Under the pieces are notes generated by a model. The model saw only the letters and a program-made list of their open reading frames with translations, did not search any database and was not told the origin of the DNA. From Naegleria gruberi (Eukaryota), in NCBI GenBank assembly GCA_000004985.1, contig GG738872.1: 64,000 bases of DNA, one strand, 5' to 3'. Numbering within the stretch: position 1 is the stretch's first letter; every line of letters starts with the position of its first letter. Positions 2,338 to 33,807 of the stretch are shown here, in pieces. The translations under genes and the position numbers were made by a program.

Positions 2338-2978
2338 CTCATAGTTTACAATAAGGTGAAAATAAAAAAAATTAAATCAAAAAGAAAAGTTGAAGAGGGT
2401 TTTCAATTGAAAACCTTATCCTTGTTGATCATCATAACTATTGTTCAATTGTGTACCATTACAGTAATATATTACTAATACAAAATGTTATATATTGTTT
2501 TAAGAAGAAAAATTCAAGGAAATATATATGTTGATGTGTAAAATAGAATAGATGGAAATTTTCAAGAAAGAACCAATATAAATTTTATATTAAAATTATA
2601 ATAAAACAATATTGAATATTTAAGCCGAGCTGTTTCACTTTTACTTTCTTTTTTACCAATATTTACAATCCCTCATTTACACAAATAGAGAATCTTCAAA
2701 ATACTTTAATATAAAATAAATTTACCAAAAAACCACTTTCTAAACTACCACCTTCTGTACTGGCACCTCAGTAATCTATCTCAGGAGTCCCTCAACTCCC
2801 AGCACCAATCAACAGCTCACAGGAGTTGAACATCATAATTTATGCATTTGCACGATATTTTCGCGTTTTACCTCCCTAAATTTCTCCTCATAGAAGGTAA
2901 AAGAGAGCAAATCAATTTTGAAGCAAATTTCACAAGAAAAAAAAACTCGCGAATCATCAAACTCACAAACACTTTGAA

Positions 2979-4291
2979 ATGTCTATTAATTCCTCGTATT
3001 CGGCAGCAGCAAATCCAGTGGTGGTGGACACAGTGCAAGAGCATGTGGTGGACACACATGGAAAGACAATTATTCAACAATATCATTATCATTATTACAA
3101 TACAGATCCAGCCACCGATGTTAATACTCAACCAAAATCTCAACCTGATGCTATTCCTTCTGTAGTACAACCAACACCAACCAAGACACAGCCAATTCCA
3201 AAAATGGCACAATCAAGATTTCTCACTCCTGCCCAAGTGATTGATAAGTTAAAACTGGATGGTGTGAGAAAATCCAAACTCACCCTCGATCAGACCATTA
3301 TTCTTTCTCTCTTTGCTGGTGTTTTCAAAGGAATTGCTGGTTCAATTTCAATGATAATTGGCGGGAATAATCCTGAAATGCAGAAAAATAATCCTGGAGC
3401 TCAACAGTTAATGTTTGGAATGTAAGTTTTGAAAATTTATGTAATTTTGATGGAATTTGAATGGTGAATGATATGAAAATTGATTGTTTTGTTAATTTGA
3501 TATTGAAATATTTCGAATAATTGTTGAACTAAAGTGTCTTTCCAATAGGATTGACTTTAACCATCATGATGGGTGCTGAACTCTTTACAGGAAACTGCAT
3601 GGTTCTAGTTTTGGGTTTACTCTCTAGAAAATGGGCTACCAAAAAGTTTATCAAACACTATTATCACTTCTCCAAGAATATTCTCCTTTCGTTTACTTTC
3701 AACATGATTGGTGCCTTTCTAGTTTCGTATTTCTTTGTCTACCAAACTCATTTAATGTCTCCAAATGATCCAGATGCCCCCTATTGGATCAAATATGCAA
3801 TGAAACTTGCAGAAACGAAATGTTCCAAAACTTTCGGCTCTTTAGTCTTGAGTGGAATTATTTGTAACATGTTAGTGACCATGTCCATCTTTATAGCCAA
3901 TGCAGCAACCAGTATTGAAGCAAAGATTATTGGATTGTGGCCTGGAATTACTGTTTTCGTTGCATGTGGTTGGGATCACTCAGTTTCGAATAGTTTCTTC
4001 ATTCCACTTGGAATGCTGTATGGAGCTAATGTTTCAGTTTCTGATTTCTTGATTGGAAACTTACTTCCAGTCACAATTGGTAATATCATTGGTGGAAGTT
4101 TTGTAATTGCTGGTCTAATGTACTTTGTAAATGATTTTCGTGCAAAGAATAAGAAACTTGTATTCGAAAGTATTTCCAAGATTTGGAAACGAACTAAACA
4201 AGCTTCACAATCTGTTAATTCCTTTGCCATGAGTCGTTCCATTAGTGAAACTGAACTTGAAAATTCTAATGAAAAAGAAACTTTAATATGA
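2979..4291 (+). CDS. formate/nitrite transporter (FNT) family channel; exons 2979..3421 and 3535..4291
   Basis: ATG at 2979. Exon 1 ends ..GAQQLMFG at a GTAAGT donor at 3422. The acceptor AG is at 3533-34 and gives ..LMFG-I-VFPIGLTLTIMMGAELFTGNC.. in frame. FNT hallmarks are present: GAELFTGN, WPGITVFVACGWDHSVSNSFF, and six TM helices. Confidence 0.85.
3422..3534 (+). other. spliceosomal intron (113 nt)
   Basis: GTAAGTTTTG donor and ..gaactaaAG acceptor. The phase matches (AT|T gives Ile). Confidence 0.7.
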
Positions 4292-4449: not shown

Positions 4450-6179
4450 ATGTTAATATTTCTATTCTCCCTGCTCGTTGTCATTCTCGGAGGTCTTTTT
4501 GTCAAACTTTCAACTTCTTTGAAAAAATCATCATCAACAGCTGACAGCAAAAAAACTCAAAATTCTGACAAGAATGATACACCTCAAATTACAACAAACA
4601 AGAGAGAATCAAGTGATGAATCATTCCTAGTCAACAAGGAAGAATTCCAAAAAGTATTTAAAAATGTTTCTTCCAATTTCTTTAAGAATATTTCTGAACA
4701 AATTTCTAAAAACAAAGAAGTGTTGAATTTAATGCATAATTCTGCCAAAATGCCAAGTATGAAGGAATTGATATCAACAATCAAGGGAAAGAGTGAATCC
4801 AATGTTGTTATTTTAGCAGAAGAAGAACAAGCATTGACAGAAATTGGTGATGATGAAGAGACAGTTGACATTGCTACAACTCCAATCATGTCAGATGATG
4901 AGGAAGATGAGGAAGATTTTAGAAAATCAATTTCTACTCCAATTGCTCAAGATGATTCTCCTCCTTCACAAGAAACTGTCCTAAATAAGATGAATGAAAA
5001 GAGAAAGAATATTCTTGCTGAAATTTTGAGTACTGAAGAATATTACGTTAAGGGATTGTTAATTCTTGATTTTGTTTACAAGAAACAAATTGAACAAAAG
5101 AAAATTGTCGATCCAAAAGTTTTAAAAACAATTTTCCAAGATGTTGACCTCGTGTTAAATGTCAATCAACAATTTTTGACTGAATTGAGAAAGATTTATG
5201 AAAAGGAAAGAAATTTGGAAAGATCTTTACAAGATAGAAAGAATAACTTTTCAAGTTTGGGTGAATTATTGAACAGTTATGCACACAGCTTTAAATTATA
5301 CTCTACTTACATTGCTGGTTATAAGAAGGCATCAGCTGCTTTATCTGAAGAAAAGAAAAAGAATAAGAAATTGACTCAATTCTTGGATGGATTGAAACAA
5401 TTGTTGAAGGATCAAGGTGAGAGAATTACTCAATTGGAAAGTTATCTTGTTACTCCAGTTCAAAGAATTCGTAAGTTTTTCATTTCTCTTTTAGTCATTA
5501 ATTATTGATTGACTAATTCACATATGTTTACTAATTGACTCGTGTGAAAATGTGAAAACTCATTGAAAAAACAGCTCGTTACAGATTATTATTAGAAGAT
5601 TTGTACAAAAACACTCCAAATGATGACACTGCAAAGGGACGTCTTGAAGAAGCTCTTGAATTGATTAAAAAGATTGCTCTCTATGTTAATGATGCCGAAG
5701 TCAAAGTTGAAAACATTCAAGTTACTTCACACATGGTTCACAAATTGAAATTGAAAGGTTTCATCAAACCATCAAGATATCTCATTAATTATTGGGCTGA
5801 AGAAAACGATTCTCCAATCCAATGCAGAGCCAATACCTCCAGTAAGATTAACAATTGCGAATTGTACATTTTCAGTGATATTATTGTCTTGCATAAGAGG
5901 TTTGACAGTTTCTTGACCTCAAAGATTGAATTGTTGTTAACTAGAAAGGGAACTAAGCAATCAAGCAAATTGATTGTTAAGGAAGTTCAAATTAATAATG
6001 GATCAAAGAATGGAACCAATGATTTGGATATTAACATCAAGTGGATTTATGAAAATAACTCAACCAAACAATTGACATTTATTGCCAAATCTGCTGACGA
6101 TTTGAAGAAGCTTGAAAGCTCCATTCGTACTGCCATTAATGGATCTTCAACCAATAGTATTTCCCTCTTTAAAAAGTAA
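4450..6179 (+). CDS. RhoGEF (Dbl-homology domain) protein with N-terminal hydrophobic anchor; exons 4450..5470 and 5575..6179
   Basis: The DH-domain signature is split by an intron: ..LVTPVQRI | P | RYRLLLEDLYKNTP. Donor GTAAGT is at 5471 and the acceptor acAG at 5573-74 regenerates the conserved Pro codon. An acidic/Ser-rich N-terminal half precedes the DH domain and a PH-like segment (5650-6120) follows it. Confidence 0.8.
5471..5574 (+). other. spliceosomal intron (104 nt)
   Basis: GTAAGTTTTT..aaaaaacAG. Splicing rebuilds the canonical QRIPRY DH motif. Confidence 0.8.
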
Positions 6180-6645: not shown

Positions 6646-8451
6646 ATGGTATTAGATACATCAAATCCACCAGTTATTATAAACGGAGCTCATACTTTGG
6701 TTGGATGTTTGACAGCATTGGCAATTGCTAGACAATTTAATCAGAGAGTAGTTTTGGTTTCGACTCATTCCGAAGCCTTGCTTGTCAATGAAGCAATTTT
6801 AATTAATTCAAAGAGTGCTGAGAAATTATGTACTCTATTGGAAACCCCACTTTTGCAAAAGGTGGTTCAATGTAGGAATATAGAGGGATATGCAGTGCAT
6901 GATCTGGAGAGAGGTGATTGTCTGATTGAGTTTGATAGTCACAGCTTGTACAAGGCAGTGATGGATAAATTGACTACTAAATATTTGGACATGGTAAAGA
7001 TTGTGTTTGGTATTGGAGAACCATCTGTGCATTTCCAAGTCATTCCACAAGTTTCAACTCTGAAAGTGCCCATTCTGAAGTTTGTGAATAAGGAGGGCAT
7101 GACAGAGGAAATCATTTCCAAGTTTTTATTCGATTGTGAGAGAAAGAGTTTTGTGGTAGCATCCATGTTGCACCATTCGAGCTCTGGTTTAAATCTCAAA
7201 CAATCTTCATCGAGTTACATGTATCAACAATTGGATATTCCTGAAAATTTGTATCCGTTCAAGGAGAGCAAATATCAAGTTAGAATTCAAGAAAATACTA
7301 CCATGATGATCGTTCCAAAATTCCTATCCAATCAATTCTCCACAACATTCTTCTTCAAGATTGATCCACAACTCCAATACGATCAACAGATGGTTGCATT
7401 GAAAATGTTGGAATTTTTAAAGAGTGAATTTCCATTCACCTTTTCATTGGTAACACTTGAGAATATCTATTCGTGGTTTTCCAGCCATTTGGAAACAATA
7501 CAGGATTATCAAGTTACTGCCTCCACTACTGAATGTATTGGATTTCTCAATCAATCAAGGATACCACATTTTGGAGATTATCAATTTATGGAGGTTTTCA
7601 AATTTATCAAAAATCTCGAAAGTTTGGGCATTCCAACAACCAAAAAGATTCCTGCTGAGGATATCAAAAAGTCTATGACTATTCTTGAGATTGACCAATT
7701 CAATAGTGTGAAGGCCATTGAGAGAACATTACATGATTATCAAGTAATGAAAAATACAATGTGGAGATTTACAGGACCTGTGTGGAACTTTTTGAAAATT
7801 CCTGTCATTACTGCCAAACAACACTTGATTGATGTATTTGGAAGAGAAACATCAAGAATGACCACAGCTCAAAAATGGAGGTACAGATTCATCTATGGCC
7901 TATCGGCAATTTTGCTCTATAAGGGTGCAAGTAATTGGTATCATGATAGAAAAGTGGCCAATGATATCATTCGCAAGATTGGAACTGAGAATGAATTGTG
8001 TAAGAAATTGATCAGAAGATGTGTTTCAGGAGATTGTGGCTCCAAAACTGTCAGTCTTATGTTACAGCATGATGAAGGATTGAACTTTTTAGAAATTAAC
8101 ACACTGGTTAATCTCTTAAAAGATTCCAGTAGTAGAGTGGAATTTTTGACACAGTTGGTCTTATCAGGAAATATCAAACAATTAAGTGGCACACAGTTAT
8201 CTTCTCTTTTGAAATCGGCTAACCAATTCATGGAAGATGACAAATATGAATTATTACTCAAATTGTATCCATATGCACAGGTTTCACAACATGAAATTCC
8301 GTTAATAGTTTCCAATTTTGATTTTTTAAAGTATCAAGACAAAGCTAGGGAACTGTTACAACCTGGTTCAAGTAATCAATCACAATCATCGGGGGGTGGT
8401 GTACTTGCTCTTGCTGTTTTAAGTGTATTCTTCATGTTGGGATTGTTGTAA
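6646..8451 (+). CDS. hypothetical 601-aa protein with C-terminal hydrophobic tail (tail-anchored or GPI-like)
   Basis: Long ORF starting at ATG, with host-like codon usage. The C-terminus is ..GGGVLALAVLSVFFMLGLL. I recognise no domain. It lies directly upstream of the glucan synthase gene on the same strand. Confidence 0.5.
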   Translation: MVLDTSNPPVIINGAHTLVGCLTALAIARQFNQRVVLVSTHSEALLVNEAILINSKSAEKLCTLLETPLLQKVVQCRNIEGYAVHDLERGDCLIEFDSHSLYKAVMDKLTTKYLDMVKIVFGIGEPSVHFQVIPQVSTLKVPILKFVNKEGMTEEIISKFLFDCERKSFVVASMLHHSSSGLNLKQSSSSYMYQQLDIPENLYPFKESKYQVRIQENTTMMIVPKFLSNQFSTTFFFKIDPQLQYDQQMVALKMLEFLKSEFPFTFSLVTLENIYSWFSSHLETIQDYQVTASTTECIGFLNQSRIPHFGDYQFMEVFKFIKNLESLGIPTTKKIPAEDIKKSMTILEIDQFNSVKAIERTLHDYQVMKNTMWRFTGPVWNFLKIPVITAKQHLIDVFGRETSRMTTAQKWRYRFIYGLSAILLYKGASNWYHDRKVANDIIRKIGTENELCKKLIRRCVSGDCGSKTVSLMLQHDEGLNFLEINTLVNLLKDSSSRVEFLTQLVLSGNIKQLSGTQLSSLLKSANQFMEDDKYELLLKLYPYAQVSQHEIPLIVSNFDFLKYQDKARELLQPGSSNQSQSSGGGVLALAVLSVFFMLGLL

Positions 8452-9533
8452 AATAAAAGATATATATTTTCCAAATAATTCTTAAATCAATTATTCCTCT
8501 TATTGTTTTAATAAAAAGAAGAAGGAATGATGTAAAAAGTATTGCAATATTAACTAGCTAATGGGTATTTCTGGTATACCTCGATCAGCAACGATATATT
8601 GACGACCTATATTCAAATTAATGGTGCGCTGCAGCCTAAAACAATGGAGCAGAGACGGGGACTTGAAATTGTTGAGTAACATCCATCGTAGAATAATTCC
8701 GTTCACGATCAAATTATTTGCAAAATTCTTACGATTATGGTGCTACCATTTTTTTAAAAATATTAATAAAAATAATTATCTAGAAGATATTCAACACAAA
8801 GATTCGTCAACTAATTTACTTCAAGAAATTAGAATATCTTTTAAAAAATCATCTTTTTGACATCATGGTTGACAATAATACCATCATTAAATAAGCGCCT
8901 ATAATAATTGTTTTGGCGCAAATTCCTAATAAGGTCGCTTTGTTTTTGTACAATTCAACAAAAAGAGTCTTATTTTTGTCTTCAACAAAGCACAACATCA
9001 AAGCAAGCTTAACCAAGAGATTCACAAGAACTAATGGAGGCTCTTTGAAAAATAAATCAAAAAAAAACATCAATTTGGTTTTTGCTTGAGACACAACGGT
9101 TCAGAGTTTTATTTAGCCAAATTCCTATCTATCAATAATCTAGAAAATCGATCTGATTATTTTTCGGAATTGTCTTTTACTAGTGATTAGTAATAATAGA
9201 AAGTCTTAAGCTAAAAGCTCCGAAGAGTAAGTAGAGTCATATTTAATGTTTCTGACATTTGGTTCTGTATGAATACAATCTTGATGGTGCACTATGCTAC
9301 TTTTGTGATACTACTGTTTTAAATAACAAATCTGATCATCATTGTTGTATACAAATATATTTGTATTCAATTTAATAATACTGTGGATCACAACTTTTTG
9401 TATTGGACGGATTACTATTCCAATTTTATACAATCACCTTTTATTAATCTACCAACAACACTTCTTACAACAATCACTGTGTATTCTTATACTCATCAAC
9501 ACTCGAAAAAACCAAAACAACAACAACAAAACG

Positions 9534-12500
9534 ATGCAACCAATAGAAAATATGTTCTCTGGTCTCCTAGATTCGAGTAACAAACAAAACGAGGACTCCT
9601 CCAATGAAGTCACTTCAGTGGACAGTCCCTCAAAATCTAAAAAAGTGTCTGGTATTAGACGTGCTGCTTCAATTCAAGTCGGATTGAGTGATTTCGAATT
9701 GAGTGGTACTAATGTGCCTAATCCAGAATCTATTTCTTTAACACATTTGAGTAAATATGCTATCACTCTGGCTGGTATGCACGAAGTAGTAGAAGAAAAG
9801 AAGGAATTTGTCAAGCTTATCAAGAGATTAGACGAAACAGCCAGTATTATTACTCAAGCACACGATATTATTTATGAGGCAATTATGCAAAATCGTCGTA
9901 TTACTAGTAGTGATGAATGGTTGGTCGATAATTTTTGGATGATCAAGGAACAAATCCACATGACAAAAAAACACTTGCCACTAGGATATGAAAAGGAAAT
10001 GCCAAAGTTGAATAATACAAAATGTGCAGGTTATCCACGTATTTATGGTATTATTTGGGAATTGATTAACTTGGTAAATGGTCAAGTAACAGAAGAGAAT
10101 ATTTTCCAATTTGTCAAATCTTATCAATCTGTCAAACCATTGACAATTGGTGAATGTTGGGGTATTGGTGTTATGCTTCGTTTAGGTCTTTTAGAAAATA
10201 TTAGACGTGTTGCTGATGGTATTATTAGCAGAAGACAAGATTGTAACCTGGCTGATGCTTGGGCAGATCGTTTATTAACTAGTGCTGAAAAGAGTAGTCG
10301 TGATGTTGTTCAAATTCTGTATCAATTATCACAAAGTGAACCTATTATTACAAATGCTTTCGTCTTACAAATTAGTCAACGTTTACAAGGTTCTGATCCT
10401 GTTCTTTCAATTGTAAATACATGGTTAGAACAACAATTGAGTATTAAGGGTATTGATATCGATCAAATTTTCAGAATGCAAAAGCAAGCTAACTCTTCTA
10501 ATCAAGTTACAATGTCATATTCTATTAACTCTTTGAGATTAATTAACAATTTTAATTGGAAAGAGTTTGTTGAAAAATTGAGTCATATGGATGTTATTCT
10601 TCGTAAGGATCCTTCTGGTATTTATTCATATCAAAATTTCCATACCAGAGATAGATGTAGACACGCTATTGAAAGAATTGCAAAGAGATTCAAGATTGAT
10701 GAAAAGCAAGTTGCCAACAAGGCACTTTCCCTAGCAAAGGAAAATCATGAAGTTTTACAGTCATGTGTTTTAGGATCACCAAGAAGAACAAGGTCTGGTA
10801 GTGATGCTGAACCTCCAAGCTCTCCTGGATCCTCTCCTACTGCTCTCTCACCTCGTAGTGCTAGTAATGTTATTAGGAATATGAATCCAGATCAAATGTA
10901 TGACATGAAACTTATTCGTAGAAAAGCTTGTATTACCTATTGGTTGCTTGAAGATGAAGGTATTAAGGAATTGCATAGAGCTTTAGGTTTTAGAATGAGT
11001 CGTTTACCATTTTCATTTGATTTAAGATTCCCAAGCTTTATTACTTCAATTATTTTCTGGACTTGCTTATTTGCTATTGCTTACATTTTCATGACAAAAC
11101 ATTCTTACCAAACACAATTTGATAGATATCTTCCATTTAGTGGAGTGGAAAGTTTGAAATTATATTTTGTTTATGAAAAGTATCTTGCCTTGGTTTTATT
11201 GTATATATCAGTTTTATTTGTAGGAAGTCAACTTGCTGTTAGTTTGACTAACATGACTTTTGTTAGACTCAAATATCCAGCATCGTTGCCATCTATGGAT
11301 TTCAGTACAACAGGTATTCCTGATGAACACAGATCTATTGTTGTAGTACCAACAATGATAACAAGTTCAGATGGTATTAATGAATTATTGTCAGATTTAC
11401 AAGGTAGATATCTTATTAACAGGGACAAGAATATTGTGTTTGGTTTAATTACTGATTTTGGAGATTCAAAGACTGAAACTACTGAAAAAGATGATGCTCT
11501 CGTCAAGCAAGTTGTTGATGGTATCAATGAATTGAACAAAATGTACACAAGAACTCCTGAAGAACAAAGATACTCCAAGACAACTTTCTTCCTCTTCCAC
11601 AGAAAGAGATTGTACAATCCAGTTGAAAAAGTTTTCATGGGTTGGGAACGTAAGAGAGGTAAATTGGCTGAATTCAATACATTTATTTTACATGGTGAAA
11701 AGGGAAGTTTCAGTCATATTATTGGTGATACTACCAATTTGAATACTGTCAAACACGTCATTACATTGGATACTGATACCATGTTACCTTCAGATGCTGC
11801 TCGTGGTTTGGTTGAAATTGCTGCTCACGTTTTGAACGAACCTGTTATTGATAATCAAACTAAACGTGTTACTCATGGTTATGGTTTGCTTCAACCTCGT
11901 GTTAGTAATGGTTTTACTGGTTCTACTAAGTCACTCTATGCTTATATGCACAGTATGGATTCTGGTTTGGATCCTTATACTAGAGAAGTTAGTGATGTTT
12001 ATCAAGATACTTTTGGTGAAGGTTCATTCATTGGAAAGGGTTTGTACAATGTTGAAACTTTTGAAACTGTTTGTGGCGAAAAGTTCCCAGAAAATAGAAT
12101 TCTCAGTCACGATTTGATTGAAGGTTGTTTTGTCAGATCTGGATTGACTTCTGGTATTGAAGTTATTGAAGATTATCCATCAAGTTATGGTGTTGAAGCC
12201 TCTAGAAGACATCGTTGGATTAGAGGTGACTGGCAAATTGCTAGTTATGCTTTCAGTCCTTTCATCTTGACTGCCAAGGGTTATGAAAAGAATACCTTGT
12301 CTGCATTGCATAGATGGAAGATTTTCGACAATTTGAGAAGATCTCTCGTTCCAGCTGCTATGACTTATTTGATTATGAGTACTGCTTTGTTCACTTCCTA
12401 TCACTCCAAGTTGCCATTCGTTGCTGTTCTCGCTGTTCTTTCAATTTATCTCATTCCAACAACAATCAATACTATTATTGATGTTGTCAAGAAACCTGAA

Positions 12501-15500
12501 GATGCTACTTGGCAAGAGCACTTTAAGAGAATCCGTTTCAATCTCTTACGTACTTTTGTTGATATTTATGTTGAATTGGTATTCACTCCTTTCGAAGCTT
12601 ACAACAATATTGATGCTATTATTCGTTGTTTATTCAGATTGTATGTTAGTGGTAAAGGTCTTTTGGAATGGACAACCTTCCAATCTGCTAGTAGTATTTA
12701 CAAGACTAATTTGTTCTTGGCCATGTCTAGATTGTTGTGGTTCCCAGTCTTGTTGACTACCTCTATTATTGCTTACATTGTCATTCAACATAATACTGCT
12801 GTTGCTTATAATGAATGGCAAACGTATGGTTTCACTAGAAGACCATTCATGTTGGCCAGTAATCTTATTACCATTATTCTCATGTTTGCCAGTTGGATTC
12901 TTTCACCATTCATTGCCTACTACTTGAGTAAGCCATTGAAGAAGAATCTCTTTGAGAGAGAAAATTTCAATGACCTCACCAAGGATGACAAGGTCTTCTT
13001 GCATGTCTTGTCTCGTAGAACTTGGAGATTCTTTGAAACATTTGTCAGAAAGGAAGATAACTATCTCCCACTCGATAACTACCAAGATTTCCCAAAGCCA
13101 ATGCTTGCTCGTAGAACCAGTCCAACTAATATTGGTCTTGCTTTGCTTGCCAATTTGGGTGGTCACGACTTTGGTTATATTACTAATAATGAATGTGTCA
13201 CTCGTATTCACAATACTTTGTCTACACTTTCCAACATGGATCGTTATAAGGGACATTTCTACAATTGGTATGATACTCAAGATTTAAGACCATTGTGGCC
13301 TAAATACATCAGTGCTGTTGACAGTGGTAACTTGGTTGGTCACTTACTCATTTTGAAGGCAGGTTTGGTTGAATTGAGCGACAACGTTCCAATTATTAAT
13401 ACTGATACTTATGTTTCTGGTTTGAGAGACAACTTGTACAGTATGCAATTCATCCTCAAAGAAGTTGAAAAGACAACCGATACTGACGAAGAAGAACTCG
13501 TTTACTTTGACATTAATGAAATCAAGCCAATGATTGAAGACTTGCACACCAAGTTGGATAACAAACCAACTAAGATTTCCAAATTGATTCGTTGGTACAC
13601 TGAAATTAAGGCCAGTTCCAAGAAATTGGAAGAAAGCTTGAATGAATCCCTCAACAAGCTTATTGAAGCCAGTAAGGATGACAGTCAAGCAGATATTGAA
13701 TGGCTCGCTGAAGACATTGAAGAAAGGTGTGAAAAGCAACTCTTATTCTATTCTCAATCATTCGTTCATCTAGTCTCTGAAATTGCTCAAGAATTGAATG
13801 AATTGGTTCCATTCTCCAAGCATTGGGATTTGCCTGAGGAATTAGTTTCACCTCCAAGCTCATTGGCTGGACTTTTAGAAAATGAAGCTATCACTCAATT
13901 CACTCAACAATTCAACAAGATGAATATTGAACAATTGACTCTCAGAGGTATTCTTGGTGTCAAGGAACAATTAGGTATTTCAAAGGTTAGTAAGGTATTG
14001 GGAAGCCTTAAAGTTACTGGTTCAACCTCTAATTTATCATCTGGACCAAAGGGAGTTGAAGCTTTGAAACGTTGGGTTACAGAATTGGAAGAATCCATTG
14101 TCAATGCTGAAAGTGAAGCCAAGAAGCGTTGTAACAAGTTGAAACGTCTCATCAATACTACTGATGATTTGATCAAGCAAGACTTTAGCTTCTTGTATAA
14201 TCCATCTCGTGATTTGCTTGTCATTGGTTACAATGTTGAATCTGACAGAATTGATCAAGCTCACTACGACATGTTCTGTTCTGAAGCTCGTCTTATCAGT
14301 TACGTTGGTATTGCTTTGGGCTATTTCCCAGTTAAACATTGGTTCTCCATGAGTCGTCTTATTACCACTCAAGGTACTCACCCAGCATTATTGTCATGGT
14401 CTGGTTCTGCCTTTGAATATTTGTTGCCACTCAACGTTATGCCAAATATTCCAGGTACTCTCCTCGATTCTACCTACCATGCTGTCGTCTTACGTCAAAT
14501 TGAATATGGTAAACAAAAGAATATTCCTTGGGGTATGAGTGAAAGTGCTTACAATTTGATGGATGCTAATCTTGTTTATCAATATGGTCCATTTGGTGTT
14601 CCAGGTTTGGGTTTGAAGAGAGGTTTGTCTAATGACTTGGTTGTTGCACCATATGCTACTGTTATGAGTTTGATGGTTCTTCCAAAACAAGCCACCAAGA
14701 ACTTGAGACGTTTGAACGAAATGAATTTCTTGGGTTGTTATGGTATGATTGAATCTGTTGACTTTACTCCTCACAGATTGAGAGGTAATATTGATGCTCA
14801 ACCAATCAAATCTTTCTTTGCTCACCACCAAGGTATGTCATTCCTCAGTTTGTTGTACTGTTTGAAGGCACAACCAATGCAAAGAAGATTTATGGCTGTT
14901 CCAGAATTTGCTGCCAACGTTTTGTTGCTTCAAGAAAAGATTCCAACAGTTCCACACATTTCCAATCCAAATGAAAAGGAAACAGAACGTTGGAAGAATG
15001 TTGGCTACAATCTCCCTTGTGCTAACAGACAATTCCAAGGTTTACACACCTATCCAGAAGTTCACATGCTCAGTAATCACGCCTTGCACGTAATGTTAAC
15101 TGTTAACGGTGGTGGTTACATTAAATATGAAGATATGAGTGTTACCAGATGGAGAGAAGATGCCACTCTTGATGGTTATGGTGTTTTGATTTATTTCAGA
15201 GATATGCAAGATAAGACTGATGTCTGGTCTGCTACATCCACACCAATCAAGGCCTCTAATGATAGTAATTATTCAGTCACTTTCAGTCAAGCTCGTGCTG
15301 AATTTAGAAGAAAACACAAGGGAATGACCACAGAAACAATTGTTACAGTTTCTCCATTGGATAATGTTGAAGTTAGACGTGTTAAATTTACCAATAATAC
15401 TAACAAGACAAAGGAAATTGAATTTACCAGTTATGGTGAAGTTGTTTTGAATCAAGGACGTGCTGATGCTGCTCACAGAGCCTTCTCTAACTTGTTTGTC

Positions 15501-18500
15501 GGTACTGAAATTCTTCATCAACAAAATGCCATCCTCTTCTACAGAAAGCAAAGAGATCCAAAAGACAAGAAGGTCTTTGGTTTCCACATTTTATTCGTTC
15601 ACGAACCAAAGAATATTATTGCCGAATCAACCTTTGAAACTGATAGAAGTAGTTTCTTAGGTAGAGGTTATACCATGCAAAGACCAAAGGCTCTCTCTGA
15701 CGACCTTGGTCCACTCTCAAATACTTCTGGTTTCCCTCTTGATCCAATCTTTGCTATTCGTCAATGTTTGAGAATCAAGCCAGGTAGAACTGTTCACATT
15801 GATTATATTACTGGTGTTGCTTTCTCCAAGGAAGACGCTATCAGTGTTATTAAGAAGTATCAAAGCAAGAAGACAACTAACCACGTTGTTAACTTTGCTT
15901 GGGTTGCCTCTGAAAAGCTTTGCTTCCGTTTGGGTATTACTGAAATTGAAGCTCAATTGTTCTCAAAGTTGGCTGGTTGTATCCTCTATTCTAATCCACG
16001 TTATCGTGCTCCACCTGGTCTTATTACCAAGAATAAGAATAATCAATCTGGTTTGTGGAAGTTTGGTATTTCTGGTGATATTCCACTCATTTTGGTTCGT
16101 GTTTGCGATCTTGAACAATCATTCTTTATGCAACAAGTTCTCCAAGCTCACGCTTATTGTAGATGCAAGGGTGTTAAATTTGATTTGGTTATTTGGAACG
16201 ATGAAACAACTCACTATCGTGACTTGCTCAATCAAACTCTCCATCATATCATGTCCCACATTCCAGGTTCAACTGATTTATTGCATCAACCTGGTGGTAT
16301 TCACCCTGTTAGAGGTGACAGTTTGACCTCATTTGAAACTGTCTTGTTGTACTCTGTTGCTCGTGTCGTTTTATCTGACAATGGTGGTAGCTTAACAGAT
16401 CAAATTAACAGAACTTCCAAGAAGGGATACGTTGTTCCTCCATTCCGTGTTATTACTCAACCTCGTGTCATTAAGGATACAATGAATACAGTTCCAAAGT
16501 TGCATGAAAGAGACCTCATTTTGAGAAACGATGTTGGTGGTTTCGATGCTAAGCGTAAGGAATATGTCATGATGTTGGGCAAGAATCATGTTACTCCAAA
16601 GCCATGGTGTAACGTTTTGGCTAACGATAGATTTGGTTCAGTCATCTCTGAAAAGGGTAGTGCTTACTCATTCTTCACTAATGCTCACGAATACAGATTG
16701 ACTCCATTTAACAATGATGCTGTCCTCGATAACTCTGGTGAAGCATTCTATATTAGAGATGAAAGCACTGGTCAATACTGGTCACCAATGCCTCAACCTG
16801 TACCAATTGATAGAGATGATTACTATTACATTTGTAGACATGGTATTGGTTACAGTACTTGGGAACATTTCCATGATGGTATTCATACTGAAACTACCAC
16901 ATTTGTTCCACAAAATGAACCTGTCAAGATTATCTTGATCCGTGTAACTAACAATAGTGGTTTTGATAGAAACTTGACTGTTACTGGTTTTGTTGAATGG
17001 GTTTTGGGTGAATTGAGAGAATTGAATGCTCCACACATTATTACTGATGTTGAAAGAACTGACAATAGTACAGCTGTTATTGCTAGAAATAACTTCCATA
17101 TTCAATTGTCTCACTTTGTTGGTTTTATGTCCGTTATTGGTCACAAGGAAGGTACAATTACTGGTGATAGAAATGAATTTATTGGAAGTAATGGTACTCT
17201 TGATAGACCTCAAGCTATGAAACAACAATACCTCTCAGGAAATGTTGGTGCTGCTTTCGATCCATGTGCTGCTATTCAAGTTCCAATCACTGTCGAAGAT
17301 GGTAAAGTTGTTGAAGTTGCATTCATGATTGGTGCCAACTATTCTAGAGATGGTGCTAAGGATGTCATTTCTCGTATTCGTAGTAACCTCATTGTTAGAC
17401 AATTATTGAACAGTGTTAAGGCCTTCTGGCACTATAATCTCAACACTATTCAAGTTGAAACTCCAAGCCCTGATTTGGATGTTTTGGCCAACGGTTGGTT
17501 GTTGTACCAAGTTTTGTCTTCTCGTATTTGGGGTAGATCTGGTTTCTATCAATCCAGTGGTGCTTTTGGTTTCAGAGATCAATTGCAAGATACTATGGCT
17601 GTTGCCTCTGTAATGCCTCAAATTTTGAGACAACAAATTCTCACCAATTGTGAACATCAATTTGAAAAAGGTGACGTATGCCATTGGTGGCACGACATTA
17701 CTAACAGTGGTGTCAGAACTACATTCAGTGACGACTACTTGTGGCTTCCACTCGCTGTTGCTCACTATTTGGAAATTACTGAAGATTACAAATTACTCCA
17801 CGAAAGAATTAGATTCTGTAAGCTCAGAGAAATTGAACCAGGTGAAGAATCAGTCTATGACAAGCTTGAATACACTGAAGAAACTGAAAGTATCTATGAA
17901 CATTGTAAGCGTGCATTGAAGTATGGTTTCAAATATGGTGCTCATGGACTTCCTCTTATGGGATGTGGTGACTGGAACGATGGTATGAATCTCGTTGGTA
18001 TTCATGGTAAAGGTGAAAGTGTTTGGTTGGCATTCTTCTTGTTCCACGTTTTGGAGAACTTTGAAAAGAATATCTTGGAAACTGAAATTAAGGATGATGA
18101 ATTCTTAGAAGAATGTAGAAAGAATCGTGAATACATCAAGGCCAACATTGAAGGACAAGCTTGGGATGGAGAATGGTATCGTAGAGCCTACTTTGATAGT
18201 GGTGAGCCTCTTGGTTCTAAGGAAAATTCTGAATGCCAAATTGACAGTTTGCCACAATCATGGGCTATTATCAGTGGTTGTGTTGATAAGAAGAGAGCTA
18301 AAATGGCCCTTACAAATGCCTATCAAAGGTTGGTCAGACATGACTTGAAGCTTATTCAATTGTTCGATCCACCACTCCAACATCAAGAACCATCTGCTGG
18401 TTACATTCAAGGTTATGCTCCTGGTGTCAGAGAAAATGGTGGTCAATATACCCATGCTTCTATTTGGTTTGCTTGGGCTTATTCCATTCTCAAGGATAAC

Positions 18501-18929
18501 AAGAAGGTTTGGGACTTGTTCGACATTTTGAATCCAATCAACCATGCCAAGACTAAGGAAGATGTTTGGAAATACAAGGTTGAACCATACGTTGTCACTG
18601 CTGATATTTACACATTGATGGATCACGAAGGTGAAGGTGGTTGGAGTTGGTTCACTGGTTCTGGTGGTTGGTTCTATAGATTAATCTTGGAAAGACTCAT
18701 TGGTATCAAGAAGCAAGGTAACTCTCTCAAATTCGATCCATGTCCAAAGGAAGATTGGAAGAAGTATAACATTAATTATCAACATGGCAAGACTGCTTAC
18801 CAAATTCAAGTTACAAGATCTGAAGAAAATGTCATGATTGTTGATGGTGTTAAGAGAGCTGATCCAACTCGTATTCCACTTGTTGATGACGGAAAGACTC
18901 ACAAGGTTGAAATTTATTACAAGTATTAA
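9534..18929 (+). CDS. cgs: cyclic beta-1,2-glucan synthase-like protein (GT84 glycosyltransferase + multi-TM + GH94 glycoside-phosphorylase-like C-terminal domain)
   Basis: Single uninterrupted ORF 9342..18929; the first ATG is at 9534. The GT domain has the motifs HVITLDTDTMLP (DxD, about 11768), GYGLLQPRV (about 11892) and RRHRWIRGDWQ (Q/RxxRW, about 12204). It is flanked by TM clusters at about 11040-11230 and 12290-12960. The C-terminal third is GH94 (cellobiose-phosphorylase-like), with GAFGFRDQLQDT, GCGDWNDGMN (17961-17990) and RENGGQYTHASIW (18429-18467). The domain order matches bacterial Cgs/NdvB/ChvB, which are about 2,800-2,900 aa. Confidence 0.85.
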   Translation: MQPIENMFSGLLDSSNKQNEDSSNEVTSVDSPSKSKKVSGIRRAASIQVGLSDFELSGTNVPNPESISLTHLSKYAITLAGMHEVVEEKKEFVKLIKRLDETASIITQAHDIIYEAIMQNRRITSSDEWLVDNFWMIKEQIHMTKKHLPLGYEKEMPKLNNTKCAGYPRIYGIIWELINLVNGQVTEENIFQFVKSYQSVKPLTIGECWGIGVMLRLGLLENIRRVADGIISRRQDCNLADAWADRLLTSAEKSSRDVVQILYQLSQSEPIITNAFVLQISQRLQGSDPVLSIVNTWLEQQLSIKGIDIDQIFRMQKQANSSNQVTMSYSINSLRLINNFNWKEFVEKLSHMDVILRKDPSGIYSYQNFHTRDRCRHAIERIAKRFKIDEKQVANKALSLAKENHEVLQSCVLGSPRRTRSGSDAEPPSSPGSSPTALSPRSASNVIRNMNPDQMYDMKLIRRKACITYWLLEDEGIKELHRALGFRMSRLPFSFDLRFPSFITSIIFWTCLFAIAYIFMTKHSYQTQFDRYLPFSGVESLKLYFVYEKYLALVLLYISVLFVGSQLAVSLTNMTFVRLKYPASLPSMDFSTTGIPDEHRSIVVVPTMITSSDGINELLSDLQGRYLINRDKNIVFGLITDFGDSKTETTEKDDALVKQVVDGINELNKMYTRTPEEQRYSKTTFFLFHRKRLYNPVEKVFMGWERKRGKLAEFNTFILHGEKGSFSHIIGDTTNLNTVKHVITLDTDTMLPSDAARGLVEIAAHVLNEPVIDNQTKRVTHGYGLLQPRVSNGFTGSTKSLYAYMHSMDSGLDPYTREVSDVYQDTFGEGSFIGKGLYNVETFETVCGEKFPENRILSHDLIEGCFVRSGLTSGIEVIEDYPSSYGVEASRRHRWIRGDWQIASYAFSPFILTAKGYEKNTLSALHRWKIFDNLRRSLVPAAMTYLIMSTALFTSYHSKLPFVAVLAVLSIYLIPTTINTIIDVVKKPEDATWQEHFKRIRFNLLRTFVDIYVELVFTPFEAYNNIDAIIRCLFRLYVSGKGLLEWTTFQSASSIYKTNLFLAMSRLLWFPVLLTTSIIAYIVIQHNTAVAYNEWQTYGFTRRPFMLASNLITIILMFASWILSPFIAYYLSKPLKKNLFERENFNDLTKDDKVFLHVLSRRTWRFFETFVRKEDNYLPLDNYQDFPKPMLARRTSPTNIGLALLANLGGHDFGYITNNECVTRIHNTLSTLSNMDRYKGHFYNWYDTQDLRPLWPKYISAVDSGNLVGHLLILKAGLVELSDNVPIINTDTYVSGLRDNLYSMQFILKEVEKTTDTDEEELVYFDINEIKPMIEDLHTKLDNKPTKISKLIRWYTEIKASSKKLEESLNESLNKLIEASKDDSQADIEWLAEDIEERCEKQLLFYSQSFVHLVSEIAQELNELVPFSKHWDLPEELVSPPSSLAGLLENEAITQFTQQFNKMNIEQLTLRGILGVKEQLGISKVSKVLGSLKVTGSTSNLSSGPKGVEALKRWVTELEESIVNAESEAKKRCNKLKRLINTTDDLIKQDFSFLYNPSRDLLVIGYNVESDRIDQAHYDMFCSEARLISYVGIALGYFPVKHWFSMSRLITTQGTHPALLSWSGSAFEYLLPLNVMPNIPGTLLDSTYHAVVLRQIEYGKQKNIPWGMSESAYNLMDANLVYQYGPFGVPGLGLKRGLSNDLVVAPYATVMSLMVLPKQATKNLRRLNEMNFLGCYGMIESVDFTPHRLRGNIDAQPIKSFFAHHQGMSFLSLLYCLKAQPMQRRFMAVPEFAANVLLLQEKIPTVPHISNPNEKETERWKNVGYNLPCANRQFQGLHTYPEVHMLSNHALHVMLTVNGGGYIKYEDMSVTRWREDATLDGYGVLIYFRDMQDKTDVWSATSTPIKASNDSNYSVTFSQARAEFRRKHKGMTTETIVTVSPLDNVEVRRVKFTNNTNKTKEIEFTSYGEVVLNQGRADAAHRAFSNLFVGTEILHQQNAILFYRKQRDPKDKKVFGFHILFVHEPKNIIAESTFETDRSSFLGRGYTMQRPKALSDDLGPLSNTSGFPLDPIFAIRQCLRIKPGRTVHIDYITGVAFSKEDAISVIKKYQSKKTTNHVVNFAWVASEKLCFRLGITEIEAQLFSKLAGCILYSNPRYRAPPGLITKNKNNQSGLWKFGISGDIPLILVRVCDLEQSFFMQQVLQAHAYCRCKGVKFDLVIWNDETTHYRDLLNQTLHHIMSHIPGSTDLLHQPGGIHPVRGDSLTSFETVLLYSVARVVLSDNGGSLTDQINRTSKKGYVVPPFRVITQPRVIKDTMNTVPKLHERDLILRNDVGGFDAKRKEYVMMLGKNHVTPKPWCNVLANDRFGSVISEKGSAYSFFTNAHEYRLTPFNNDAVLDNSGEAFYIRDESTGQYWSPMPQPVPIDRDDYYYICRHGIGYSTWEHFHDGIHTETTTFVPQNEPVKIILIRVTNNSGFDRNLTVTGFVEWVLGELRELNAPHIITDVERTDNSTAVIARNNFHIQLSHFVGFMSVIGHKEGTITGDRNEFIGSNGTLDRPQAMKQQYLSGNVGAAFDPCAAIQVPITVEDGKVVEVAFMIGANYSRDGAKDVISRIRSNLIVRQLLNSVKAFWHYNLNTIQVETPSPDLDVLANGWLLYQVLSSRIWGRSGFYQSSGAFGFRDQLQDTMAVASVMPQILRQQILTNCEHQFEKGDVCHWWHDITNSGVRTTFSDDYLWLPLAVAHYLEITEDYKLLHERIRFCKLREIEPGEESVYDKLEYTEETESIYEHCKRALKYGFKYGAHGLPLMGCGDWNDGMNLVGIHGKGESVWLAFFLFHVLENFEKNILETEIKDDEFLEECRKNREYIKANIEGQAWDGEWYRRAYFDSGEPLGSKENSECQIDSLPQSWAIISGCVDKKRAKMALTNAYQRLVRHDLKLIQLFDPPLQHQEPSAGYIQGYAPGVRENGGQYTHASIWFAWAYSILKDNKKVWDLFDILNPINHAKTKEDVWKYKVEPYVVTADIYTLMDHEGEGGWSWFTGSGGWFYRLILERLIGIKKQGNSLKFDPCPKEDWKKYNINYQHGKTAYQIQVTRSEENVMIVDGVKRADPTRIPLVDDGKTHKVEIYYKY

Positions 18930-19084
18930 TTAATAAAGTTAAAATAAATTAATTTTAAATCTCTACCAACTTATTAGTTATCCTGATGTCTTTAATTTTA
19001 ACATTTACAGACATAGATGAATCAGATAAGGAATACCACAAGTTAGAATTAGCAAAATAGATTTTATACAATAATATTAATAAA

Positions 19085-20003
19085 TTAATCATCAGCAATA
19101 TAAACTTTCTTTCTGGAAAATATTTTGATGGCTTCGTCAATTTCTTGTAATTTCCTTTCCATATTATTTTTCTTTTGTTGTAAGAATTGAGTATCACACA
19201 ACATTGGAAGCTTATTGATGGCACCCTGCACTTCTCTCTTACTCTTCTCGAGTTCAGTAAGAGTTTCAAGTCTATCTTCTTCAGAAACTAATCTCATTCC
19301 AGGAGGACATTCATCCTTCTTCTTTTGTTCTTCCTTTTCTTTTTGTTCCTTTTCATGTTTGATTGCTTTTCTATCTTTAATGCTATGAATATTTAGCAAA
19401 GAAATTTCAAGATTTAAAAACTTACTATTGAGGCACTCTTCCAAAATCTTCTGGCTTTTCAAAGTCTTCCTTTACAGCTTTCGATGCCACTTTGGCTTCT
19501 CCCTTTTTAGCGATTGATTTCAAATCCTTGGTTGCGTTTTGTACAATATAATTTTTAGAGTCTCTATGTGTGACTGGTTCATTAAATTCCTCCTTCTTAG
19601 GAATTGGTGGTTTCTTCTCGTTGGCTAACATTTCCTTCTCCTTCTTTACTTCAAATGCAATTTCCTTCTTTTTAATATTTTGTTCGGTTATTCTCTCCCT
19701 ATTTGCACCTGATTTCAAATAATTTTCATTCACTGGATTCTCGGGAGTGTAATCTTGTGCTTTAATATCCTTCACCTTTGATTCAACCTCCTTGTATTTT
19801 TGTAGTTTAAATTCTTCCTTCTTGATAGCATCCTTTTCCTTCTTTAATTTATTTTCGTGTTCCTTTTCTTTAAGCGCTTTAAGATTTTGATGCATATGAT
19901 TTTTAGGTATGATACCTTGCTTTTCCTGTACTCCTCTGTATCCGTTCACAGGATGAAGAAAATTTGAAATTTGACTTGAATCCGAATGATGGTGTTTGAT
20001 CAT
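19085..20003 (-). CDS. enkurin-domain protein (Lys/Glu-rich coiled-coil N-terminus); exons 20003..19426 and 19382..19085
   Basis: The C-terminal segment ECPPGMRLVSEEDRLETLTELEKSKREVQGAINKLPMLCDTQFLQQKKNNMERKLQEIDEAIKIFSRKKVYI matches the enkurin-domain pattern. The two ORFs are joined by a 43-nt GTAAGT..catAG intron in frame (..GRVPQ-Y-IKDRKAIKHE..). Confidence 0.6.
19383..19425 (-). other. spliceosomal intron (43 nt, GTAAGT..AG)
   Basis: Donor GTAAGTTTTT overlaps the in-frame TAG. The acceptor is ttcatAG. It has the same 43-nt length as the intron at 1330..1372. Confidence 0.55.
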
Positions 20004-33266: not shown

Positions 33267-33807
33267 TTTCTCTTTCTCTTGTCTTTATTCTCTCTATATA
33301 ATAATAATTATAATAAATTGATTTAAATTGTCTCTTGTTATTTACAATAAAATTGATCGGAATGTGTAGTGAGTATCAAAATATCATAAAATCCACAATG
33401 TTCTTCTATTCCTACTTTGTTATTGCTCTGTGATCACAAAAGTTTTGCTTTTTTCGCTGTTGATCAAAAACAAATAACAATTCCTATTGTCTGTGTCTTG
33501 TTATTTTTTTCTATTTTTAAACTTGGAGATGGAATTTTCCTAAGTTCGTATGATTACTACTTGGTATTGTTGAATTTAAATTATTAAATAACGTTAACTT
33601 TGAAAAATTAGTAATAATGTATGTTTAACATTCCGATAATTTAGTGTTTCATCTTTCTATCAGGAATATAGAAATCTTGCAATGGTGGCTCCAATCTTTT
33701 TCCGTGTTGCCTGATGATAAGTTTTATTTTAGATTGGATCCACTTTTAATTATTTAAAAAAAAATAGCTTAACACCTCAATCAGTCAATCTCAACCGTTT
33801 CTTGAAA

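Follow-up and report, generated by a model that had tools for sequence, protein, structure and literature searches.

Is a complete, bacterial-type synthase for cyclic beta-1,2-glucan a resident gene of a eukaryote, and if so, what would it do there? The question is raised by a 64,000-nucleotide stretch of Naegleria gruberi DNA (contig GG738872.1, assembly GCA_000004985.1; hereafter the window), in which a first-pass annotation made from the sequence alone had read the plus-strand gene at positions 9534-18929 as a synthase (Cgs) of cyclic beta-1,2-glucan, obtained from bacteria. Specialist papers treat these synthases and their product as bacterial, and bacteria need the glucan for hypo-osmotic growth, symbiosis and virulence (PMC12102758, PMC11842490, PMC10901819). 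Here, we report that the gene (cgs) is linked to eukaryotic genes, has host-like composition, evolves under purifying selection and nests among prokaryotic homologs. We consider it probable from these comparisons that a eukaryote acquired a complete bacterial-type Cgs long before N. gruberi and N. fowleri split, and that its descendants now form a distinct eukaryote-type clade.

Production of cyclic glucan by a eukaryote had been put forward in the first-pass annotation as new biology. For the product this was overstated, as an isolation, from the alga Chlorella pyrenoidosa, of cyclic beta-1,2-glucans, reported in Suarez 2008 as cited in PMC11842490, precedes it; a eukaryotic synthase, on the other hand, is undescribed in the literature searched. 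No paper on a eukaryotic Cgs was found in that full-text literature (subscription-only papers, including the N. gruberi genome paper, lay outside its scope), and glucan is not mentioned in the Naegleria pangenome paper. The sequences have long been public under uninformative names and the kind of enzyme is known; what is new is the unexpected host and the undescribed eukaryote-type clade.

Gene identity and domain architecture

The stop-to-stop ORF extends from 9342 to 18929 (plus strand) and has 3,195 codons if counted from a TTG. Its first ATG lies at 9534 and is followed without interruption by a reading frame of 3,131 amino acids (aa) and a stop codon; the length of 3,195 codons given previously thus fits the TTG-extended ORF but not the coordinates 9534-18929, which give 3,131 aa, while the description of the gene as a single 9.4-kb exon was borne out. 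An exact-sequence look-up identified the protein, letter for letter, as N. gruberi NAEGRDRAFT_58230 (XP_002676328.1, UniProt D2VHG4), located on a 413-kb scaffold and known to databases only as "predicted protein". The N. fowleri ortholog FDP41_002565 (3,161 aa, on a 778-kb contig) carries the name "N,N'-diacetylchitobiose phosphorylase" because the C-terminal 800 aa resemble cellobiose and chitobiose phosphorylases. That name is misleading, as the GH94 module is part of a 3,131-aa membrane synthase, and both names are corrected by the present identification. The coding sequence and the regions recognised within it, all on the plus strand, are listed below (TM, transmembrane; Atu, Agrobacterium tumefaciens; CY, cyclization).

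9534-18929 (+): cgs coding sequence, a single exon of 3,131 codons plus stop (ORF list, translation, exact-sequence look-up, Pfam, PDB)
9534-9725 (+): N-terminal extension, aa 1-64; most bacterial tblastn matches begin at about query residue 65
9726-11033 (+): N-terminal scaffold domain of Cgs (about aa 65-500), with a 105-bit alignment to residues 84-359 of Atu Cgs
11037-11240 (+): TM helices 1-2 (about aa 502-520 and 551-569), with hydropathy maxima of 2.16 and 2.30 (Kyte-Doolittle) and a position matching the Atu TM domain
11241-12308 (+): GT84 glycosyltransferase domain, by residue mapping onto 8RF0 in native numbering
12309-12902 (+): TM helices 3-6, about aa 930-948 (weak), 960-978, 1067-1085 and 1105-1123, by hydropathy; aligns to about Atu 800-960
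12951-14978 (+): CY domain, GH189, by alignment to 8WY1 with verified numbering
14979-18926 (+): GH94 phosphorylase-like C-terminal half (GP); Pfam matches at aa 2355-2600 and 2631-3057, alignment to 8RF9

Pfam matched the protein twice with the GH94 supersandwich model PF06165 (1.5e-151), once with the GH94 catalytic model PF17167 (6.7e-106) and once with Glycoamylase PF10091 (3e-9), so that the GH94 half comprises two supersandwich stretches and a catalytic barrel; no NCBIfam model matched. In the PDB, the protein matched A. tumefaciens Cgs (8RF0/8RF9; E=0, 1,624 bits) in three collinear stretches, which HMMER placed at Atu residues 84-359, 450-1123 and 1262-2806, corresponding to the N-terminal, GT84/TM and CY plus GH94 regions. 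The next PDB match was the T. italicus cyclization domain 8WY1 (1.5e-112, 380 bits), and the C-terminal 800 aa matched cellobiose and chitobiose phosphorylase structures at about 1e-79. The similarity to GT84 and GH94 families predicted earlier was thus recovered by database search, and each motif quoted at that time is present in the translation: DTD at aa 746-748, QPRV at 787, RRHRWIRGDWQ at 891-901, RDQLQD at 2681, GCGDWNDG at 2810 and ENGGQYTHA at 2967. Kyte-Doolittle hydropathy gave five strong TM segments and one weaker one, which coincide in position with the six Atu helices; it revealed no N-terminal signal peptide.

The order N-terminal domain, two TM helices, GT84, four TM helices, CY and GH94 half is therefore present in full length and collinear, as it is in Atu Cgs (ChvB; 8RF0, 8RF9, 8RFE, 8RFG), whose GH94 half likewise includes the supersandwich. 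This agrees with the full Cgs/NdvB/ChvB architecture assigned in the first-pass annotation, the match to the solved Atu enzyme running end to end. Brucella abortus Cgs and Sinorhizobium NdvB are the classical homologs of Atu Cgs. Over tblastn query aa 561-3131, the identity of Naegleria Cgs to a plasmid-borne Agrobacterium copy is about 39%; to a Sinorhizobium NdvB it is 35%. Relative to the Atu enzyme it has about 64 additional aa at the N-terminus, a loop rich in Ser and Pro, and a CY insert of 263 rather than 138 unaligned residues, and its host differs from Agrobacterium in being a eukaryote without a periplasm and with no ChvA/NdvA exporter gene seen nearby. Compared to TiCGSCy (8WY1), the founding member of GH189 and an isolated domain from a Gram-positive thermophile, the Naegleria CY domain shares the nucleophile, the acid/base, E1400 and H1536/H1537, but sits in a full-length protein and has a much longer insert. 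The C-terminal module shares its catalytic Asp with GH94 phosphorylases (LpSOGP, cellobiose and chitobiose phosphorylases), which are soluble proteins of about 800 aa, whereas in Naegleria the module forms the length-control half of a 3,131-aa predicted membrane synthase.

Eukaryote-type sequences and conservation of functional residues

The sequences closest to N. gruberi Cgs were those of N. fowleri (87% identity), the environmental sequences P0002-P0005 and P0126/L032 (51-57%) and Diphylleia rotans (50%; EukProt EP00002_P003193, a Trinity transcript). Together these eight (two from Naegleria, one from D. rotans and five environmental) make up the eukaryote-type clade; they align over their full length at 50-87% identity, have the same architecture and in several cases contain a basic-Ser motif described below. 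The contigs that carry the environmental members measure 9.0-11.2 kb, which is close to gene length, and the encoded proteins contain poly-Q, poly-A and poly-H runs. On L003 a poly(A) tract follows the stop codon, which is direct evidence of polyadenylation for this one contig only. Since the contigs are transcript-sized, one is polyadenylated and homopolymer runs are present, the environmental members are probably eukaryotic mRNAs. The 1.8 kb upstream of the L004 homolog held only short unidentifiable ORFs, and a metagenome scan for eukaryote-type genomic context added a single transcript-sized contig, which shares its source organism with P0126; everything else it returned was bacterial. In P0005 (L005), about 85 aa of additional low-complexity sequence lie inside the GT84 domain between LNKPI and GYGLLQPRV, either an in-frame retained intron or a true insertion.

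Residue roles were taken from a structure-function study of the Atu enzyme (PMC10901819) and from the description of GH189 (PMC10834661), and chain numbering was checked against published numbering before mapping. In Atu Cgs, D527 and D624/D626 coordinate UDP, D739 is the catalytic base and Y694 is the site of autoglucosylation priming (PMC10901819); the [QR]xxRW glycosyltransferase motif is described in PMC7185993. The positions mapped as follows.

GT84: Atu D527, Naegleria D641 (alignment to 8RF0)
GT84: Atu R586, Naegleria R706 (alignment to 8RF0)
GT84 DxD: Atu D624/D626, Naegleria D746/D748 (alignment to 8RF0)
GT84 primer Tyr: Atu Y694, Naegleria Y815, nt 11976-11978 (+), in a G(L/I)DPY motif of the IF1-homology loop
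GT84 catalytic base: Atu D739, Naegleria D860, nt 12111-12113 (+)
GT84 [QR]xxRW and R776: Atu R773/W774 and R776, Naegleria R891..R894-W895 and R897
CY acid/base: TiCGS E1356, Naegleria E1584, nt 14283-14285 (+)
CY: TiCGS E1400, Naegleria E1628
CY nucleophile: TiCGS E1442, Naegleria E1670, nt 14541-14543 (+)
CY: TiCGS H1536/H1537, Naegleria H1764/H1765
GH94: Atu D2393, Naegleria D2682, nt 17577-17579 (+) (alignment to 8RF9)
GH94 catalytic acid: Atu D2528, Naegleria D2816, nt 17979-17981 (+) (alignment to 8RF9)

The Atu residues named here, together with the E1300-equivalent, are all kept in Naegleria, and with them the catalytic residues of the three domains and the primer Tyr. Conservation was assessed in an alignment of 195 sequences (the 8 of eukaryote type and 187 bacterial). 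All 17 functional positions were invariant in the 8 eukaryote-type sequences and kept in at least 185 of the 187 bacterial ones; for the GT84 residues alone, the bacterial figure was at least 186. The equivalent of Y815 was the same in all 195 sequences, and the catalytic residues of the CY (GH189) domain were likewise invariant throughout. At the level of sequence, every defining feature of a Cgs is present in the Naegleria protein.

Three regions set the Naegleria protein apart. The N-terminal extension contains a basic-Ser motif, R42-R43-A-A-S46 (nt 9657-9671), which has counterparts in three other members of the clade (RRNAS in N. fowleri, RRNKS in P0002 and RRNSS in Diphylleia). This motif resembles a basophilic-kinase site, and a second one, RRTRSGS, lies in the loop at aa 405-470; a regulatory phosphosite at the basic-Ser motif is conceivable. 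The loop itself (about aa 405-470, nt 10746-10943) is Ser/Pro-rich and poorly conserved, with an identity of 0.68 between N. gruberi and N. fowleri. Finally, a helical insert (aa 1283-1545, nt 13380-14168) splits the CY domain, and query residues 1282-1546 bracket the stretch unaligned to Atu 1123-1262; the corresponding Atu insert forms a dimerising 4-helix motif (PMC10901819). Extension, loop and insert may be eukaryote-specific features of regulation or oligomerisation. A protein-database search with the CY insert alone (aa 1290-1545) returned nothing at E<=0.001, missing even the N. fowleri ortholog, and a search with N-terminal aa 60-500 found only short bacterial fragments of at most 42% identity and no further named eukaryotes.

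Purifying selection on the gene is strong and about equal across all domains. The Cgs proteins of N. gruberi and N. fowleri share 86.9% of their amino acids across 3,125 aligned codons, with dN 0.094, dS 1.29 and dN/dS 0.07, and identity per 150 residues was 0.81-0.97 everywhere except in three loop/insert regions. A 9.4-kb ORF would not remain open at near-saturated synonymous divergence unless it were used; the intact frame, the dS of 1.29 and the low dN/dS thus indicate that the gene is in use.

Predicted activity and product

Homology with the Atu enzyme suggests, as the most likely activity of Naegleria Cgs, the synthesis of cyclic beta-1,2-glucan from UDP-glucose at the cytosolic surface of a membrane. 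Six helices would anchor the protein in this membrane and leave every catalytic domain on the cytosolic side; the GT84 domain would use UDP-glucose to glucosylate Tyr815 and to extend a beta-1,2 chain; the GH94 domain would trim this chain by phosphorolysis and so set its length; and the GH189 domain, with E1670 as nucleophile and E1584 as acid/base, would free a ring of about 17-25 glucoses by intramolecular transglycosylation. In proteoliposomes, the purified Atu enzyme forms cyclic glucan by itself (PMC10901819), so that no partner should be needed for synthesis.

Export is a separate matter. The TM bundle of Atu Cgs forms no channel in the solved structure (PMC10901819), no frame of the 64-kb window contains an ATP-binding cassette (ABC) signature (LSGGQ, or Walker A...LSGG), and no ABC Pfam match was obtained on its ORFs of at least 180 aa, in line with the earlier remark that no cgt-type ABC exporter lies nearby. 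The ring would therefore be released first into the cytosol, unless an unlinked transporter exists. In bacteria, too, cgs often lies apart from its partner genes: four annotated plasmid loci were examined, and in none of them was cgs flanked by an exporter or cgm gene.

The strongest competitor of ring synthesis is a functional but repurposed enzyme, which would make a linear or protein-anchored beta-1,2-glucan for the cyst wall or cell surface, or would serve mainly, by way of GH189 and GH94, to process beta-1,2-glucans of ingested bacterial prey instead of releasing free rings. Bacteria are the food of Naegleria, substrate length decides whether the isolated CY domain gives linear or cyclic products (PMC10834661), and both the clade-specific extension with its enlarged CY insert and the lack of an exporter in the window would suit a changed role. 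A purely degradative function, however, would not need the GT84 donor-binding residues, base and primer Tyr, all of which are invariant. The cyclase nucleophile and acid/base are invariant too, and selection acts about equally on every domain outside the loops. We therefore regard repurposing as unlikely, while giving it more weight than any other alternative.

If the enzyme does synthesise the ring, a selected, catalytically complete protist synthase would extend cyclic beta-1,2-glucan chemistry to eukaryotes and might help explain the isolated Chlorella report; it predicts cyclic glucans with a degree of polymerisation of 17-25 in N. gruberi. By analogy with bacteria, its role in this freshwater or soil amoeba might, speculatively, be osmotic or stress adaptation, or encystment. 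Bacteria use the molecule as an osmoprotectant and as a virulence factor that manipulates the host. Were the amoebae to make it, it could bear on their osmotic or cyst biology, or on how N. fowleri and its host interact, and a large enzyme without a human homolog would be a candidate drug target in that lethal human pathogen; to our knowledge, Cgs is absent from humans and we know of no human homolog. More broadly, and only tentatively, we propose that cyclic beta-1,2-glucan may be an endogenous metabolite of free-living protists, among them Naegleria (with N. fowleri), Diphylleia and several lineages not yet sampled. Its source would be an old Cgs clade adapted to eukaryotes, which the basic-Ser motifs of the N-terminal extension could put under the control of kinases.

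Origin of the eukaryote-type clade

Outside the eukaryote-type clade, the closest relatives of Naegleria Cgs are all bacterial, at 40-46% identity, and the bacterial family comprises 3,971 representative clusters (50% identity) at E<1e-30. Trees were built by neighbour-joining (NJ) from Kimura distances over 2,766-2,775 trimmed columns. A single-protein scan of genome contigs, with patterns that were too specific, yielded two distant bacterial loci (27-31% identity), and L006 was used as outgroup. The eukaryote-type clade was monophyletic in 200/200 and 150/150 bootstraps. Mean distances from it were 0.90-0.93 for the Thiobacillus, Gallionella, Hydrogenophilales, Blastopirellula and Pirellulaceae types, 1.05 for a Serratia plasmid copy, 1.14 for Agrobacterium and 1.34 for Sinorhizobium NdvB, and in 91% of bootstraps the clade and the Thiobacillus/Planctomycetes-type sequences were split from Agrobacterium, Sinorhizobium, Paracoccus and a distant metagenome-assembled genome (MAG). 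Rooted on that MAG, the clade nests within bacterial diversity.

This bipartition and the larger distances make the classical alpha-proteobacterial enzymes unlikely donors. The alpha-proteobacterial framing of the first-pass annotation accordingly needs revision: the family is not mainly alpha-proteobacterial, and the enzymes of Agrobacterium and Sinorhizobium count among the remoter relatives of Naegleria Cgs. The tree it had proposed for finding a donor clade could be built and places the eukaryotic sequences nearer the Thiobacillus/Planctomycetes type, but no single sister group emerged from it. Divergence inside the eukaryote clade reaches 47% (N. gruberi versus Diphylleia), as deep as between bacterial phyla, and so points either to an old acquisition or to movement of cgs between eukaryotes.

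Among bacteria, the gene is found on 167 plasmid records, 56 of them predicted to be conjugative, with E. coli, Klebsiella, Salmonella, Pantoea, Sinorhizobium and Paracoccus among the hosts. Complete copies occur on clinical E. coli (NZ_CP148367.1), Salmonella (NZ_CP149286.1) and Klebsiella plasmids under the NCBI name "glucoamylase family protein". The Cgs proteins of a Thiobacillus (P0023) and a Desulfobulbaceae member (P0046) differ at 18.6% of sites in spite of belonging to different phyla, which suggests frequent transfer of cgs among bacteria. IMG/VR contained 17 "viral" contigs with cgs (L015-L031), most of them full-length. Six were checked; at about 48-50% GC and 60-65% identity to the Serratia plasmid copy they are Enterobacterales-like, and instead of true phage genes the IMG/VR contigs may represent plasmid DNA or sequence next to prophages. 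A giant-virus or phage source of the Naegleria gene was rejected, as the six contigs lay no nearer to the eukaryote clade than bacterial copies otherwise do.

The depth and monophyly of the clade, whose internal differences match those between bacterial phyla and whose members span Heterolobosea (Discoba) and Diphylleia (CRuMs), could also be read without any transfer, as an ancient eukaryotic gene of an early common ancestor that was lost in most lineages. We consider this quite improbable. About eight eukaryote-type sequences stand against thousands of bacterial clusters, the 91% bipartition groups the clade with a subset of bacteria, the MAG-rooted tree places it inside them, and bacterial cgs is mobile, as its plasmid and conjugative-plasmid records attest. 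In addition, the Diphylleia transcript could stem from a co-cultured organism.

Several points nevertheless weigh against an acquired, ring-forming Cgs. The phylogeny is NJ only, and any sister group of the eukaryote clade receives at most 2% support. Within the 64-kb window there is no ChvA/NdvA-type exporter, succinyltransferase or beta-1,2-glucanase. Expression evidence is limited to related clade members (the Diphylleia transcript and the poly(A) of L003), that Naegleria itself produces beta-1,2-glucan is something we infer from its sequence, and the clade-specific N-terminal extension and longer CY insert could alter regulation or oligomerisation.

Integration into the Naegleria genome

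The genes that flank cgs are the following.

4450-6179 (+): RhoGEF (DH-domain) gene; Pfam RhoGEF 8.1e-25 on 4450-5508, second exon 5601-6179 inferred
6646-8451 (+): immediate upstream neighbour, a 601-aa ORF with no Pfam match
19085-20003 (-): enkurin gene in two exons; Pfam Enkurin 1.2e-17 on 19085-19462, GTAAGT...TAG intron near 19410-19460

The first-pass annotation had placed cgs between a RhoGEF gene and an enkurin gene. Directly downstream this is correct, the enkurin gene having an intron; upstream, the 601-aa ORF lies between, and the last ORF of the RhoGEF gene ends about 3.3 kb before the cgs ATG. In N. fowleri (778-kb contig L001), cgs adjoins the same enkurin gene, again on the opposite strand, and by blastn the cgs-enkurin block is collinear between the two species, with 78-83% nucleotide identity in cgs and 69-71% in enkurin. 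The upstream neighbour in N. fowleri is a different, 676-aa gene that maps to about 28.0-29.4 kb of the window on the minus strand, so the N. gruberi and N. fowleri assemblies do not repeat a single artefact. As only the cgs-enkurin pair is collinear, the gene order must have been broken by rearrangement immediately upstream of cgs and again immediately past enkurin. In N. fowleri, the genes upstream of cgs (676-aa, 278-aa and ankyrin) map, inverted, to about 28.0-29.4 and 38.7-40.4 kb of the window, and its downstream Med25_VWA, cation efflux and CRAL-TRIO genes are absent from the N. gruberi window.

An independent European Nucleotide Archive (ENA) metagenome contig, L112 (ERR1078381), is 99.8% identical to positions 9467-19745 and crosses the cgs-enkurin junction, which answers the earlier call for a physical-linkage check on the downstream (18930-19085) side. 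The window has a sole assembly gap, 104 N at 61010-61113, and the sequence from cgs to each of its neighbours is free of N runs. The GC content of cgs is 0.37 and its GC at third codon positions (GC3) 0.304, as against a GC3 of 0.21-0.35 in eight neighbouring genes, confirming the host-like composition described previously. Synteny, L112, the gap-free junctions, composition and selection (GC3 0.304, dN/dS 0.07) establish that cgs is integrated in the Naegleria nuclear genome and is not contamination, and the claim of an integrated, ameliorated acquisition holds.

Bacterial contamination, or a chimeric assembly joining cgs to Naegleria DNA, might be suspected from the lack of introns and from the purely bacterial relatives (40-46% identity) outside the clade. 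It is effectively refuted by an 87%-identical gene beside the same enkurin in an independent N. fowleri assembly, by a third, metagenomic assembly across the downstream junction, by neighbour-like GC (37%) and GC3 (0.30) with no Ns at the junctions, and by membership of a clade that holds a poly(A)-tailed sequence. A decaying, functionless relic of transfer, for which nothing speaks beyond absent annotation and publications, is refuted by the selection analysis, with 9.4-kb ORFs intact in two species near synonymous saturation and all catalytic residues retained.

Other genes of the window

Outside cgs, the window has ordinary Naegleria gene content, including NHL-repeat proteins, PGAP1, ferritin, LRR, ankyrin and JmjC proteins and a RIO kinase. 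A formate/nitrite transporter family protein is encoded at 3551-4291 (+; Pfam 9e-47), with a possible upstream exon at 2979-3425. A 4,884-aa ORF at 46500-61154 (-) combines a REJ domain with many teneurin-like EGF repeats; its N-terminal end is uncertain because the ORF crosses the assembly gap. At 33802-35778 (+), an intron-less gene encodes a 658-aa UvrD/REP-type superfamily-1 helicase (Pfam 1e-41) of bacterial flavour, which could be a second horizontal acquisition.

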